From contig CAVRCJ010000003.1 of NCBI GenBank assembly GCA_963719515.1, positions 544,001 through 608,000 on the forward strand: a DNA stretch of 64,000 nucleotides, in the 5' to 3' direction. Made by a program: the position numbers and the translations under genes. Below, piece by piece: positions 19,849 to 59,073 of the stretch; position 1 is the first letter of the stretch; each line of letters starts with the position of its first letter. The notes under the pieces were generated by a model. It searched no databases and had not been told where the DNA came from. It worked only from the letters and a program-made list of their open reading frames with translations. This DNA is from an uncultured cyanobacterium (GTDB lineage Bacteria > Cyanobacteriota > Cyanobacteriia > CAKZMO01).

Positions 19849-22764
19849 ATGAATCGAGTTGCCCTCGTCGTCGGCATCAACACCTACAGCCACTTCAACC
19901 CGCTCAGCGCTCCTGCTAAAGATGCTGAGGCGATCGCCCAGCGGCTGCAGCAGGATGGGGAGTTTAAGGTGATTCGCTTGCCGGAGGCCATTGGCCGCGA
20001 TGGTGAAGGCGGCTATACCCGCAAGGCGGGCAAGCGAACCGAGGTGACCCAAGCGGAGCTAGAGCAGGCCCTAAAGCAGCTCTTCCGGCCCAATAGCCCC
20101 CAAACTCCGGACGCCGCGCTGTTCTACTTTTCCGGCCACGGCCTCCGCGATGCCGAGGGTGCTGAGGGGCTGGACAAGGGCTACCTGGCCACCAGCGAGA
20201 CCGACCCCAACCAGTCCCGACCGGGCCTATCCCTGGCCTGGCTCCAAAACCTGCTGGCCCGCAGCCCCATCAAAAACCAGATCGTCTGGCTGGACTGCTG
20301 CCACAGCGGCAGCCTGCTGATCGACGTGGGGTCCGCCAACCCTGGCCACAGCAGCGACCATAACCGCTGCTTTGTTGCATCTTCTCGCGACTTTGAGCAG
20401 TCTTGGCAAGACCTCAACAGCCCCTACAGCGTGCTGACCAAAGCGCTGCTGGATGGCCTCGACCCATCGCGGGTAGCGCAGCGGTGGGTTGACTCGTTTT
20501 CTTTGGCGGACTACGTCAACCAAGCCCTTAAAGGAGACCTGCAGTCGCCCATTTGCACCAACTTTGGCGATGCCATTGACCTGACCCATGCCGGGCAACT
20601 GGCGGTAGCAGATGCCAGCGCTACCCAGGGCACAGACATCTGCCCCTACAAAGGGCTCAGCTACTTTGACTGCAACGGCGAAGACCCCAAGTATTTCTTT
20701 GGCCGCGAGGCGCTGACGGACCAACTGCTGGATCATGTGCGGCAGCAAAGCTTTTTAGCGATTGTGGGCGCATCGGGCAGCGGCAAATCCTCGGTGCTGC
20801 GGGCGGGGCTGCTGCACCAGCTACAGCGGGGGCGGCGACTGCTGGGGAGTGACCAGTGGGAGGTGCGCGTGATGCTGCCGGGGGAGCAGCCGCTGCAGAA
20901 TTTGGCGCTGGCCTTTGTGGATGAGGACCTGCCGAAGCTGGACCGGGCGGCGCAGCTGGGAAAGGCGGAGCGGCTGATTAAGGCGGGGGCCGATGGGCTG
21001 CGGCGGCTGGTGAGCACGTCGGACGCGCCGAAGGTGGTGCTGGTGGTGGACCAGTTTGAGGAGGCCTTTACCCTGTGCCAAGATGCGGCGGAGCGGGAGG
21101 CCTTTTTTGGCGTGCTGCTGGGGGCGCTGGAGGCTCTGCCGGAGCGGCTTTGCCTGGTGGTGGCGATGCGATCGGACTTTGTGGGCAAGTGCTTTGAGCA
21201 GGACTACGGCGGGCTGGCGCGGCAGGTCCAGAAAAATTTGGTGGCGGTGACGCCGATGAACCGCGATGAGCTGACGGATGCGATTTTGGAACCGGCGAAG
21301 CGGGTCGAGCTATCGGCGGAGCCGGAGCTGGTGAAGGTCGCTGCTGGATGATGTGGAGAAGTCGCCGGGGAATTTGCCGCTGCTGCAGTACACGCTGCGG
21401 GAGCTGTGGAACCAGCGGCAGGAAAATACGCTACAGCTGAAGACCTACGCCCAGCTGGGCGGGGTGACGGGGACGCTGCAGCAGCGGGCGAATGCGGTGT
21501 ACGAGTCTTTGGATACTGCGCAGCAGGCCACGGCGCGGCATGTGTTTTTGAATTTGACCCAGCTGGGGGAAGGGACGGAGGACACCCGGCGGCGGGTGCT
21601 GAAGCAGAGCTTGGTGACTAGCCAGCATCCTGCGCCAGTGGTGGATGCGGTGGTGCAGCGGCTGGCGGATGAGAACCTGGTGGTGACCAGTGAGCTGGTG
21701 GGCAAGGGGAGTGAGGGGCAGCGGCTGGCGGTGGTGGATGTGGCCCATGAGGCGCTGATTCGCCATTGGCCGCGATTGCGGCGGTGGCTAGACGCGGACC
21801 GGGATTTGCTGCGGCAGCAGCGGAAGATTGAGCAGGCCGCTGACGAGTGGACACAGCAGCAAGTTTGTAAGCAGCTATTTGCTTGAGGGACGACAGCTGA
21901 CCGATGCAAAGCTGTTTGAGAAGAAACATGAGGACAGTCTACCGCTCTCGGAAATAGCCAGCGAGATACTTGAGCAGAGTAGTCGCAAGCGTCGCAACAA
22001 TCGGCTTAGGCTAACTATTCTAGGCGCAATTATTCCACTTGGACTAGCAACTTATGCGGGTATTCAAGTGGCTGAATACATGAGACTGCGTCCTCATTGG
22101 GATACCCTTTACGCCTACGACAGCGAGGCTAATCCTATCTCCAGAAATGCTCTCGTTAGAGCTGCTGAGACTATCAACGGCTCTAGACGTTCCCTCGCTA
22201 GAATCAGCTTGCCAAATGCTGACCTCATCAGCGCCAACCTCATCAGCGCCAACCTCATCGACGCCAACCTCAGCAGCGCCAATCTCCGCAGAGCCGACCT
22301 CAGCAGCGCCGACCTCATCAGCGCCGACCTCATCGACGCCGACCTCAGCGACGCCAACCTCATCGACGCCAACCTCAGCAGAGCTAACCTCCGCAGCGCC
22401 GACCTCAGCAGCACCGACCTCCGCAGCACCGACCTCAGCAGCGCCGACCTCTTCAGAGCCGACCTCTTCAGAGCCAACCTCAGCAGCGCCAACCTCAGCA
22501 GCGCCGACCTCCTCATCGCCAACCTCAGCAGCGCCTTTCTGCTAGCCAGTGACTTTCGAGAATCGAAAAACCTCACTGCTGAAGCAATTCAATGGTGACG
22601 AGCCACCGTTACTCTGCAACATCGCGCTGCCGTCCTATCTCAACGATATCGACCCCGATCGCGATTGCGACCAAATGCCTCAAGCCTTAAGCGATCGCTA
22701 CAACATCCCCCTAGAAGAAGCCCAGCAAATCGTAGACGTAGCCCGCAAAAAGCAATGGGACTAG
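19849..22764 (+). pseudogene. Caspase-like (C14) peptidase + STAND NTPase + TM + pentapeptide repeats, split by three +1 frameshifts (real or sequencing error)
   Basis: YFSGHG and LDCCHSG dyad; CPYKGL..F, FFGRE, GASGSGKSS, VVDQFEE, LPLLQYTL, VAHEALIRHW; ORFs 19849-21351, 21353-21886, 21828-22598 and 22549-22764 join by removing one base at about 21337, 21851-21860 and 22583. Confidence 0.85.
22218..22532 (+). repeat. 21 tandem 15-bp units encoding A(D/N)Lxx pentapeptide repeats
   Basis: Consensus GCC RAC CTC ANC AGC; unit count read directly. Confidence 0.95.
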
Positions 22765-22940
22765 ACCTCTAAAATCTGCTCAGCCGTTACCACAAGTCCC
22801 TCAACTACAGAGGTCACAACGCGATCGCGCATTCCGTGAACCGATAGCGATCGCCTCCAGCGTAAAACCCCCGTTACCGCCTAGGCTGCGGCAAGACCAC
22901 GCCTCGCCCAATCTCGCCCCGCTTCCCAATAAATTTTAAC

Positions 22941-23363
22941 TTTTAGGCGGGAAGTCCCGCGCTTTAATCTTTGATTAAGCGTCGGGATGAGAGCCGCGTG
23001 AGCCGGAGGTGAACAGTACTTGTGCATGCTAGAATGTATACATATCAATTGTTTAGCAAGGTTTTCCACCCCTCCAAGGTGTTCGTCGAGAAAAGTATCA
23101 CCCATAGAAAACGTAACGGTGACGCGACACAGTTTTTGGAAGAAAGGAAGCTCAAAAAAGCAATCTGTCTGGGGTTGGTCATTGCCCGGACGTAAAACAA
23201 ATTTCCTATGGATGGGATCCAATCGGGGCCAGTACAGCTTGCTGTATGGCTAGACAGGACCAGATGAAGTAGGAAACCTTCTTGTGCGGTACCCATTCGT
23301 TTGCGGTGCGTGAGCCAAGAAGCCCGCGCTATATACGCAGCATCAGCGTCGGGAGTATGTCAC
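22941..23363 (+). mobile_element. Non-coding miniature IS200/IS605-family element enclosing a structured RNA; left boundary approximate
   Basis: Related subterminal hairpins CCCGCGCT...AGCGTCGGG at both ends (22956-22986 and about 23323-23353); right end GGGAGTATGTCAC; no credible ORF inside. Confidence 0.7.
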
Positions 23364-23377
23364 TTTCGCTAGTACGG

Positions 23378-23406
23378 TTGTCACGGGCCGCAACATCCGC
23401 TAAAGT
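23378..23406 (+). promoter_or_regulatory. Putative sigma70 promoter
   Basis: TTGTCA-17 bp-TAAAGT, upstream of a structured leader. Confidence 0.55.
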
Positions 23407-23578
23407 TTCTATCCATGGGTGCCAACCGCACCCAACTTACGAGACGCCCAATACTTTAGCGCGCCCCCTGGCAGTGCGACCACACTAGCCAGAGAGCATC
23501 ACCACCGCGTTGACAGTACCAACGCGATGGCTACCGCCGATTTTATCCTGTGGTAGCCATCCCGTTCTTCACCGGTGG

Positions 23579-24001
23579 ATGGCTAGACGATCTGGGCGTC
23601 TTTCCTCCAAACCACAGGAAAAACCTCATGATTTACCTTCTCAGCGACCCCCAGGGCCGCACCGATTCCCCTACCCATCCGATCGCCTTCTCCGCCCCCC
23701 GTACGGGCGACCGGCCGGTCGCCCCCTACATCGGAACGCCCCCCATACCGCGATCGCCCCCCACGCGCCGCATCCCGAAGCCGCCGCACCGGAATTCTAT
23801 TCCCTGCGGCTGATCGCCCTTGGCCACCCCCACGCCGTCGACAACTGTCGCCTGCGGCTGCATAAGCTGGGCTACGCCGACCCCAACGACTGGTCCATCC
23901 CGCTGCCGATCATTCGCTCTACTGAGGTGATCCGCGCCGCCAAACCGGGCGAAATCATGCGCATTCTCACCAAGCGCGTTGCGCCTCCAGCGATCGCGTA
24001 G
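23579..24001 (+). CDS. Cyanobacterial hypothetical protein; start and frame ambiguous (in-frame ATG 23579, or SD-led ATG 23628 needing a frameshift)
   Basis: C-terminal LRLIALGHPHAVDNCRLRLHKLGYADPNDWSIPLP...PGEIMRILTKR looks like a recurrent cyanobacterial small-protein domain (recalled, not searched). Confidence 0.55.
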   Translation: MARRSGRLSSKPQEKPHDLPSQRPPGPHRFPYPSDRLLRPPYGRPAGRPLHRNAPHTAIAPHAPHPEAAAPEFYSLRLIALGHPHAVDNCRLRLHKLGYADPNDWSIPLPIIRSTEVIRAAKPGEIMRILTKRVAPPAIA

Positions 24002-33212: not shown

Positions 33213-34578
33213 ATGAACTACACCTAACCGCTACGCTGAGCTAGGTGTTTCGTGCGCTTCATTGCCCCTAGTTGCCTCATGCTTCCGCAGTTGGTAGAGC
33301 TAGGCGGCTCAGCGCTTGCGAGGGAAGATTCCTGCCCCCGTGCCCAGATCAGATTGACCTGAGCAGCATTGGTATCGCGGTCTTCGGTATGGCCGCAGTG
33401 TTGGCATCGGTGGATACGGTCGCTCAACGTCTTGGGCGTCAGCTCCCAGCACTGAGCGCAGCGCTGGGACGGCTTGAGCTGCCGGGTAGGAGACTCCAGA
33501 TAGAATCCGCCCGCCTCAGCTTCCTTGTAGGACAGCAGCGGTCTAACCCTTGCAAACCCCACCGACAGGATTGAGCGATTGAGACCGGCCTTTTGACGTT
33601 TCCGCTTGCCTTTGCGGGCCTTGCGGGTCATGCCCTTGACGTTAAGCTGCTCTCCGGCGACTAGGCTATTACGGCTAACTATGTTGCTGGTGAGCTTGTG
33701 CAACCAATCCGCTCGCTGGTTGGCTACCTTGCGTTGAATCTTGGAAACTTTGCGTCTGGCTTTGCGCCAGCGGTTAGAGGCTTTGACGCCCTGCTTGCGG
33801 TTGGGCCTGCGTTTGCGGCGCAGCACCTTGCAGGCCTGCTTAACCGCGACGTCGCCCGCTTTGATGAACTCAGGCTTTTCCTCTTTGGTGCCGTCTGAGA
33901 ACGACACCGCATTAGTGCAGCCTAAGTCTATCCCGACAGCACCGCCAGCGGTTTGGCGCTCTGGGCTGCACGCCACGGTGATGGAGGCGTACCACTTCCC
34001 TTCACTTGGCCGGTAGACAATCGTGCAGGTTGTCGGTCTCCCCCAGGTACGAGCTTGTCCTCGCATCCGAATCTTGCCCAAGTTTGATAGCTGCAGGCAA
34101 CCATTGATGCCATCGCTTAGCGCCTTCCAGCCAGAACCGCACGGATAGGTCCAGCCAGAGAACAGCCGTATCGACTTGAACTTGGGATACTTCCCTAGCC
34201 CTTTGAAGAACCGCTGAAACGCAAAGTCTACTCCCTTGACCGTAGCCTGCAAAGCATGACTGCCCAAAGCTTTGTACTCTGGCCAGCACTCCTTGAATGC
34301 AGGTAGCAGGTTTTGCTGGTCGATGTAGCCCACAGACTGCCCGTGCTGTTTGTAGCTGGTGCGGCGGTGCTCTATGCAGGCGTTGTACAGGTAGGCATGA
34401 AGACGCCGCCACTCGAACAGCATCGCCCCTTGCTGGGTCGTCGGGTAGAGCCTATACGTTACACGGCGTGTTGCCATAACTCGATGTATGCACTGAGACA
34501 ATCGTACTATGTTCGCTACGCTCACGCGCTATCCTTCCCTAATCCGCTTCGCTGAGATTAGGGACTGCCGCGATTCTG
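33213..34578 (-). mobile_element. IS200/IS605-family element, tnpB only (IS1341-like), 1366 bp, no target duplication
   Basis: Left-end hairpin 34536-34564, right-end hairpin 33221-33247 then GTAGTTCAT; removing the element restores CAA|TTC (Q|F) of dtd. Confidence 0.93.
33224..34477 (-). CDS. tnpB: TnpB RNA-guided endonuclease
   Basis: TYRLYPT N-terminus, RuvC GIDLG / AGEQL / DRDTNAA, zinc finger CAQC...CQHC. Confidence 0.95.
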
Positions 34579-57828: not shown

Positions 57829-59073
57829 CTAGCCGCAAGGGTGAGCTAGACGTTTCGCACGTTTCAACGCACCGACTTGCTTCATGCTTCCGCAATCAGT
57901 AGAGGTTGATACTCGACGGCTTGAGGACAGTTCCTGCCCCTTGGCCCAGATCAAGTTGACCTGGGCAGCATTGGTATCGCGGTCCTCAACATGGCCGCAG
58001 TGCTGGCATACGTGAGTGCGCTCAGCCATTGTCTTGGGCGTCGTCTCCCAGCACACAGCACATCGCTGAGTAGGCTTAAGCTGCCGGGTAGGGGACTCGA
58101 CATAGAAGCCACCGGCCTCAGCCGACTTGTAGGATAGCAGCTTGCCAATCTCGGCAAACCCTACCGACAAGATAGAGCGATTGAGACCGGCCTTTTGCTT
58201 TTTCCGCTTACCCTTCTGGGCCTTGCGAGTCATGCCCTTGACGTTGAGTTGTTCGCCAGCAACTAGGCTGTTATCGCGTACTATGCTGCTGGTTACCTGG
58301 TGAAGCCAATCCTCGCGCTGGCGCTTCACTGTTCGCTTGCGACTAGAAATCTTTTGTTGCGCTGCTTTCCATCTGCGAGAGCCACGCACCCCACCACGCC
58401 GGTCAGGGCGGCGCTTCCTTTGCAGGGACTTGCTCAGTCGCTTAACGGCCCGGTCGCCCTCGGCGATAAATTGAGGCTTGCGCTCTTTGGTGCGGTCCGA
58501 GAACGATATGGCATCTTTGCAGCCCAGGTCCACACCGATAGCGCCTGTCCCTGTCTCCCGCACCGGGCTGCATTTGACCGTGATGCTGGTATACCACCTG
58601 CCATTCCGACAGAAGATAGTGCAAGTGGTAGGGGTGCCCCATGTGCGGGCGTTGCCGCGCATCTTGATAACGCCTAGGTTAGACAGTTTCAAGCTACCAT
58701 GCTTGCCCTCGGTGAGCGCTTTCCAGCCCGCCTTACACGGATATGTCCAGCCAGCATAAAAGCGGTTTCCCTTAAACTTTGGATATCCTCCAAGTCCCTT
58801 GAAAAACCGCTCAAATGCGAAGTCAACCCGCTTTAACGTCGCTTGCAGCGCATGACTGCCAAGCTCAGCAAATTCAGGCCATTCTGCCTTGAACGCTGGC
58901 AAACAATTCTGCTGAGCATAATAGTCAACACTGATGCCCCAGCGTTTATACATGTCGCGCCTGTCAGCTAACGCTGCATTGTATAGATAGCAATGCAAAC
59001 GTTTCCACTCAAACAGCTTACTACCCTGCTGTTTGGTCGGATATAGCCGGTAGGTGATACGTCGCGTTAGCAT
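57829..59073 (-). CDS. tnpB: TnpB RNA-guided endonuclease
   Basis: MLTRRITYRLYP, RuvC GVDLG / AGEQL / DRDTNAA, CAVC...CQHC. Confidence 0.95.
   Translation of the reverse strand: MLTRRITYRLYPTKQQGSKLFEWKRLHCYLYNAALADRRDMYKRWGISVDYYAQQNCLPAFKAEWPEFAELGSHALQATLKRVDFAFERFFKGLGGYPKFKGNRFYAGWTYPCKAGWKALTEGKHGSLKLSNLGVIKMRGNARTWGTPTTCTIFCRNGRWYTSITVKCSPVRETGTGAIGVDLGCKDAISFSDRTKERKPQFIAEGDRAVKRLSKSLQRKRRPDRRGGVRGSRRWKAAQQKISSRKRTVKRQREDWLHQVTSSIVRDNSLVAGEQLNVKGMTRKAQKGKRKKQKAGLNRSILSVGFAEIGKLLSYKSAEAGGFYVESPTRQLKPTQRCAVCWETTPKTMAERTHVCQHCGHVEDRDTNAAQVNLIWAKGQELSSSRRVSTSTDCGSMKQVGALKRAKRLAHPCG

Follow-up and report, generated by a model that had tools for sequence, protein, structure and literature searches.

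The window, a stretch of 64,000 nucleotides from the genome of an uncultured cyanobacterium, carries on its forward strand a gene-less element of 424 bases at 22940-23363. The insertion site is intergenic, with a short ORF behind a pentapeptide-repeat gene on one side and an unassigned ORF on the other. Within 21828-22764 the pentapeptide-repeat gene reaches a stop just before the short ORF, which has 71 codons, and together with 19849-21886 this stretch resembles a caspase/NTPase gene region in pieces. To the right of the element, a host unit (23364-23980) begins at once; it is repeated several times in this genome and in its congeners (69-85% alike). The window also holds two tnpB genes of a distant clade (33335-34477 and 57937-59073), the second with a small ORF reading divergently beside it. 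As a preliminary description of the locus had noticed, these two have ends different from those of the element; their products are about 25% identical to the TnpB that we regard below as its likely partner.

A gene-less IS605-family element at six sites

A BLAST search of the genome returned six full copies of the element, 88-99% alike, which fall into two variants: a pair of 424 bases (99.1% alike), one of which lies in the window, and four copies of 422 bases that are about 99% alike among themselves and 88-89% identical to the 424-base pair. Locations outside the window include contigs C7, C10 (two copies, one of them at C10:332117) and C13. TTTAA precedes all six copies and TCAC ends them; their flanks are unrelated, and matching among the six stops after TCAC. 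Within the preceding motif (22935-22939, + strand, outside the element), TTAA is the TnpA target and the predicted TnpB TAM, and is found before 6/6 copies, as is the T at position -5, against a genome background of 28%. In the relative G004 we found a scarless empty site of the C10:332117 copy, in which TTAA is joined directly to the right flank. Since six copies have unrelated flanks and this empty site is available, the ends of the element can be fixed at 22940 and 23363, which places the left boundary one base before the 22941 given previously, with TTAA at 22936-22939. The copies and empty sites that the preliminary description had proposed to look for therefore exist, the latter for the one C10 copy, and together they show that the element inserts just downstream of a short motif and duplicates no target sequence. 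An empty site for the window's own copy was not found in four congeneric genomes, and the region of the C7 copy is without the element in two relatives that are too diverged there for the junction to be read. Beside the empty site, G004 (C382, locus L142) has an additional 800 bases, absent from this genome, in which a Uma2-like ORF can be made out by eye.

Both ends have the layout of IS605-type ends. The left end (22940-23000, + strand), recognised from its sequence, consists of a putative DNA guide, AAGT (22952-22955), and a subterminal hairpin (22956-22986), while the right end (23319-23363, + strand), for which the copies and the empty site also speak, comprises a DNA guide GAAG (23319-23322), a hairpin (23323-23353) that doubles as the last stem of the omega-RNA described below, and the cleavage motif TCAC (23360-23363). 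The two hairpins, the terminal TCAC and all of the motifs quoted in the preliminary description were found where it had put them. In IS608 the four-base DNA guide next to the left hairpin changes with the target, and the same pattern is seen in this genome: AAGT accompanies TTAA in 6/6 copies here and in 8/8 cases in a tnpB-only family, and AAGC goes with TTAG in 19/20 and 49/49 cases in other families. No TnpA or TnpB protein match was obtained from the element in any frame. Subterminal palindromes at both ends, relatedness to IS605 and the absence of genes for a transposase or a nuclease mark it as a PATE, a gene-less member of the IS605 family, now spread over six sites.

Potential helpers are present in the genome, which contains tnpB-only as well as tnpA-tnpB elements. 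Three open TnpA frames have the HUH motif and, like the six sites, are consistent with mobilisation in trans. Against it, the elements with an intact TnpA have TTAG as their target instead of TTAA, so that mobilisation by these enzymes would rely on the DNA-guide rule for the change of target. The preliminary description had called for an autonomous partner; a likely source of the nuclease, with the same left end and target, is found in the genome as an IS1341-type tnpB-only family (seven paired copies, about 1.4 kb), one member of which encodes its TnpB at G000:C10:347861-349117. This family has in common with the element the left end, TTAA, the promoter position, a homologous tail and TCAC; unlike the element, its members carry tnpB (NF040570) and no leader. 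Four of the seven retain a full open frame with three catalytic motifs. Over the first 75 bases of the left end, the four-copy variant is 91-95% identical to this family and the window variant 76-79%, the latter value counting against the partnership. Because the element is without the gene and has nevertheless kept a promoter-like site and a guide-RNA end, its nuclease is likely borrowed from other elements, and the shared target and the close match of the four-copy left end make the TnpB of the tnpB-only family the likeliest candidate for a nuclease acting in trans.

A tnpB-type tail, a promoter-like site and a predicted guide

The back half of the element has the features of a TnpB guide RNA. 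Its omega-RNA scaffold (23165-23322, + strand), which derives from the 3' end of tnpB, is predicted to form a hairpin at 23167-23191, a RAGATH-18-like core at 23205-23273 and an added hairpin at 23278-23319. An nhmmer DNA profile built on tnpB 3' ends, from the 28 of 32 loci in which an anchor could be placed, matches the window at 23188-23362 with an E value of 4.9e-10 and also matches 12 of the 13 elements tested. This profile does not reach the front 110 bases of the element, and a TnpB protein profile finds nothing in the window element (E >4). In the reverse direction, a model made solely from 14 gene-less tails matches the intact tnpB tail of another genome at 63.6 bits. In this genome it reaches 28-34 bits on the tails of the tnpB-only family and does not match the tail of the tnpA-tnpB (IS605) family (6.6 bits). 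An old reading frame in the tail reads TnpB-like, yet carries stops. Across the 14 sequences both partners have changed in 24 of the 44 predicted pairs, a kind of count that is inflated by related sequences. The tail model has matches in 27/151 genomes of the class, and 23 of the 28 loci inspected, some of them on short contigs, are without a tnpB match. By homology, then, the 3' 200 bases are a tnpB-derived omega-RNA tail.

The preliminary description had proposed a mobile guide-RNA element whose interior does not read like decayed tnpB. Six different flanks and the presence of helpers support its picture of a protein-free mobile element with an RNA that would run to the right end, gain a guide at each new site and depend on proteins made in trans; the statement about the interior does not hold for the 3' half, in the light of the 28-tail profile and the tail model. 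Nor is a gene-less guide-RNA element new as such, as that description had implied, since elements of this type have been reported (PMC10691335; 10.1101/2023.03.14.532601). Among its base pairings, the local hairpins 23167-23191 and 23228-23250 recur in our predicted fold, the first with covariation, and we abandon both long-range helices (23058-23067 with 23272-23280, and 23102-23107 with 23206-23211), in which 0/15 pairs change on both sides and whose score is reached by 451 of 500 shuffles.

We also considered RAGATH-18 (RF03064) itself as an identity for the tail; the score of 21.5 bits (23 bits for one homologue) lies below the gathering threshold of 44.9. The central stem of this IS607 reRNA, with the same end motifs, aligns weakly with ours, but the window element has IS605 hairpin ends, not those of IS607. 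Moreover, the reRNA is described as separate from the coding sequence (PMC11061315), whereas the tail of the window element derives from it.

Upstream, the extended -10 noted in the preliminary description, TG-c-TAGAAT, is present at 23027-23035 (+ strand), where related elements have their tnpB promoter. A TAnnnT hexamer is found 65-80 bases before the leader core in 14/14 leaders examined, and the tnpB-only family has a -10, GCTATAAT, at a like place (by eye); a strict -35/-10 scan did not list a promoter at 23027-23035. Having a promoter-like site where tnpB has its -10 and a tail of tnpB type, the element reads as a tnpB-only element in which the coding region has been replaced. The promoter is predicted to drive a single RNA of about 320 bases plus guide, extending through the right end. 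In metatranscriptomes, two runs with small shares gave low-depth contigs, without strand or ends, over the leader (139 bases, depth 3.6, one difference from the second variant) and the tail (196 bases, depth 2.9); as a flank contig has the same depth, these are no evidence of transcription.

By analogy with TnpB systems, the flank at 23364-23383 (+ strand) would act as the guide, which matches the element's own empty site and differs in all six copies. The last hairpin ends at 23353 and the guide begins at 23364; TnpB omega-RNAs are described as carrying a hairpin close to the guide, about 10 bases away at most (PMC10278001). Every other TTAA-flanked site in this genome differs from the guide by 3 or more mismatches over 16 bases, and a TAM-flanked near match that could lead to self-targeting is absent for all six guides. 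A promoter-like site at 23378-23406 shares bases with the guide, and one paralogue of the host unit matches the guide with 1 mismatch in 16 but has no TTAA.

A conserved leader RNA in front of the tail

The predicted RNA is composed of two modules, the tnpB-type omega-RNA and, in front of it, a conserved leader, which is the undescribed part. This new leader RNA (23055-23155, + strand) is modelled as a hairpin (23060-23070) followed by a long stem (23073-23140) that encloses a near-invariant core (23079-23130). Its loops lie at 23063-23067, predicted to pair with 23146-23150, at 23089-23097 (internal, A-rich) and at 23103-23117 (apical). Rfam (E up to 10) and tnpB profiles, both DNA and protein, gave no match over the leader, and a literature search of limited reach turned up no description of such a leader.

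When 185,579 genomes were scanned for an exact pattern, 34 loci were obtained. Fifteen of these, in 8 cyanobacterial genomes, match the leader model with E <1e-22, and in 15/15 the leader comes with a gene-less tail; many of the fifteen are training rows of the model. The genomes include Altericista, Phormidesmis, Pleurocapsa, Pseudanabaenaceae and Xenococcaceae records. The 19 non-cyanobacterial loci were dropped as chance (best E 0.15). A wider leader model gave 27 matches, in 14/151 genomes of one order and in 1/57 of another. The leader is present in many families of cyanobacteria. New leader loci with room downstream are followed by the tail in 21/22 cases (18 by profile, 3 by eye), once two duplicates of training rows and three truncated loci are set aside; one new locus has a tnpB element upstream, outside. 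Those of the fifteen loci whose contig is long enough show a left end followed by the -10, the leader, the tail and a right end, with no tnpB between. A search around tnpB genes or other tails found the leader at 0/58 loci, and it is present at none of the tnpB genes of this genome. Matches in 6/8 other candidate genomes were due to chance, two weak model matches were dropped as lying in coding-like sequence, and one misaligned alignment row was left out. Viral contigs gave 0 matches to one pattern and 47 to another, none of them matched by the model, and a metagenome pattern scan gave 2 true relatives among the 13 loci of the matches listed. Longer relatives open with a conserved 12-base motif (17/18), which the window copy is without.

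Some loci depart from this arrangement. At L294 (G248:C67:51198-51349) the leader has a long apical-loop insertion and no omega tail, and a same-strand host ORF comes after it. At three further loci leader and tail are present and no left end can be seen. One of them, L114 (G075:C45:40467-40570), occurs as a single copy immediately behind a host gene. The others, L288 and L291, come from two genomes; as they share the same site and the same guide, they may be immobilised and possibly domesticated guide genes.

For the fold of the leader, the comparative evidence favours a local structure over the long-range helices discussed above: 6 of its 28 pairs changed on both sides, 95.7% of cells are paired and 0/500 shuffles score as high. 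In the core 180/180 cells are paired, in an alignment fitted to the model; 2/13 pairs change on both sides and 9/13 never vary. A small GG..CC hairpin stands 23-26 bases before the core in 14/14 leaders, and its loop pairs better with the cognate partner than with permuted ones (88 vs 69, p 0.0007), by rules that were set after seeing the data. Held-out loci have the hairpin in 18/20 cases, and their loop pairing scores 209 for cognate partners vs 168 for permuted ones (sd 8.7), a value reached in 1 of 100,000 permutations (p=1e-5), though by loci found with a model that has its outer helix near the loop pairing. With one locus per lineage the scores are 79 vs 66 (p 0.006), and 6/18 held-out loci, all of one lineage, have no consistent loop partner. 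Folded as a single sequence, the window element does no better than shuffles (z -0.82), nor do single leaders (z -1.1 to +1.2), and in a duplex test of the outer stem, cognate pairs had no advantage over those with swapped flanks. Taken together, these data suggest that the leader is probably pseudoknotted, with the hairpin loop pairing behind the long stem.

The leader and tail combination is one of several in this genome, in which other gene-less families comprise 53 copies (399 bases), 18 copies (about 455 bases) and 2 copies (450 bases). The tail of the 53-copy family matches a resident tnpB, and the 18-copy family has the same tail as the window element (83% alike) behind another leader; our leader models match the leaders of none of the three. 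As the leader of the window element also sits on other tails, leaders and tails appear swappable, which points to a general job rather than to one partner. In all, at least four gene-less families combine other leaders with tnpB-type tails: the 53-copy family (for example G000:C1:23682-24080), whose leader shares the hairpin-and-partner base (by eye), the 18-copy family (C3:610786-611250), a pair at C1:7104-7553 and C4:101932-102377, and a pair at C4:98089 and C7:179801 that carries the 5' motif of the long leaders. One TnpB clade is found behind both TTAG- and TTAA-type left ends (G000:C10:892744-893991, C3:360840-362060 and C11:131240-132712), so that one nuclease may serve both kinds of gene-less family.

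How the element may work, and what else it could be

In the explanation that we propose, the element inserts after TTAA without duplication and ends at TCAC, as the copies and the empty site show. Judged by homology, it has kept the ends, the promoter position and the 3' tail of a tnpB-only element, with about 1.1 kb of coding sequence replaced by a leader of about 100 bases. Transcription from the promoter would then give an RNA through the right end, in which the flank becomes the guide. The TnpB of the tnpB-only family, which shares the left end, would load this RNA and cut empty sites, to be repaired from the occupied chromosome copy, as in a published retention model (10.1101/2023.03.14.532601), while TnpA made elsewhere would excise and reinsert the element. 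We consider it quite probable that these steps jointly hold, in other words that this is a PATE making omega-RNA for a TnpB in trans.

The last and weakest step concerns the leader, which may be a compact 5' cap, preserving an untranslated RNA until a TnpB made elsewhere reaches it and trims it. Such protection would be needed because, unlike a translated tnpB mRNA, this RNA is untranslated and its nuclease is made in trans. Cyanobacteria have the 5' exonuclease RNase J. TnpB is reported to trim the 5' end of its own RNA (PMC10278001), so the leader need not be part of the mature guide. Counting against a cap, the invariant paired bases of the core exceed what steric protection would need, and we put the odds of a protective role for the leader a little short of even. 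The reading as a whole, a PATE with a leader cap and an omega-RNA, we rate at a probability of about 0.45. If the leader does stabilise omega-RNAs, it would be a ready part for TnpB editing tools, and the system offers a direct test of guide RNA survival and loading when the nuclease is made elsewhere.

The near-invariant core leaves room for a specific binding or catalytic role. The leader might be an active module that binds TnpB, RNA polymerase, a host factor or a ligand, or that cleaves itself, and thereby controls maturation or loading of the guide. Such a role would account for core bases that are almost invariant across families, the paired ones included, for the added 5' motif of the longer relatives, and for the finding that the leader occurs once without a tail and that no left end is visible at some loci. 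By eye, both loops also hold N-G-N-A/R-A pentamers, which we take to resemble T-loops. We nevertheless think an active module unlikely, given that no Rfam ribozyme or riboswitch matches the leader at E up to 10, that a match to the host boxA is not above chance, and that unrelated leaders replace that of the window element on the same tail. In a bolder version, to which we give distinctly lower odds, the leader would be a new functional RNA domain, able to cleave itself or to bind a protein or a ligand, and bolted onto TnpB guide RNAs of several clades, in places outliving the transposon as domesticated RNA-only genes that steer a host TnpB or regulate a host gene. A leader that proved to be a ribozyme or binding module would represent a new RNA class.

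Candidate identities for the leader were rejected one by one. No small ribozyme family (twister, hatchet, pistol, HDV-like or glmS) matches the leaders in Rfam at E up to 5-10, a twister-P1 match (E 5.8) lies 800 bases from the leader, and no riboswitch matches over it. As a boxA antitermination leader, the best agreement with the host rRNA boxA is 9/13, a value reached by 98/300 shuffles. A group I intron or IStron was set aside because no intron family matches in Rfam and the window site is intergenic.

It is also conceivable, if rather improbable, that TnpA alone moves the element and that the tail is a leftover of a lost TnpB, so that the RNA guides nothing and the leader is a passenger small RNA. 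The closest TnpB tail seen is in another genome (64 bits vs about 30 for the in-genome partner), as are the best-matching TnpB tails in general, and the cognate nuclease may therefore be missing here. The element is also less numerous, at six copies, than the gene-less family with a tail matching a resident tnpB, at 53. Against such an orphan RNA, compensatory changes preserve the pairing of a tail that has no reading frame, nearly all of the new loci have leader and tail together, and the tail model does match resident tnpB tails. Finally, a plain internal deletion of a tnpB element, with the whole interior as decayed coding sequence, is very improbable, for although an RD dipeptide in the 3' strand of the leader is in frame with the tail in this genome's copies, at nearly the spacing of the RuvC-III aspartate of TnpB, that frame holds in only 5/10 homologues, neither the DNA nor the protein tnpB profile reaches the leader, and conservation of the leader across families goes far beyond decay.

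Returning to the proposed PATE with a leader and an omega-RNA, the type of element is known, and what sets it apart is a conserved, undescribed and probably pseudoknotted leader. In Geobacillus stearothermophilus, PATE-like elements often encode omega-RNAs that TnpB acts on in trans (10.1101/2023.03.14.532601). The elements of Meers et al. are, like ours, gene-less, with IS200/IS605 ends and a target motif outside the left end; an arrangement of promoter and conserved leader is not described in the passages on them, figures aside. The PATEs of Haloquadratum walsbyi likewise have near-terminal palindromes, no inverted terminal repeats and no target duplication, are too short for a transposase, form homogeneous multi-copy types and in some cases keep a C-terminal stretch of tnpB (PMC3119063). 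They differ in that the account of their origin in that paper treats them as deletion remnants and proposes no RNA module. Standalone omega-RNAs are a further parallel, being mobile, effector-less guide loci that work in trans, for which the sections of PMC10691335 devoted to them describe no leader and state that the biological role is unknown. The leader family argues that standalone omega-RNAs are not mere remnants, since it would represent a purpose-built 5' domain kept across cyanobacterial families. The cases tested in the study of standalone omega-RNAs were reportedly IscB RNAs.
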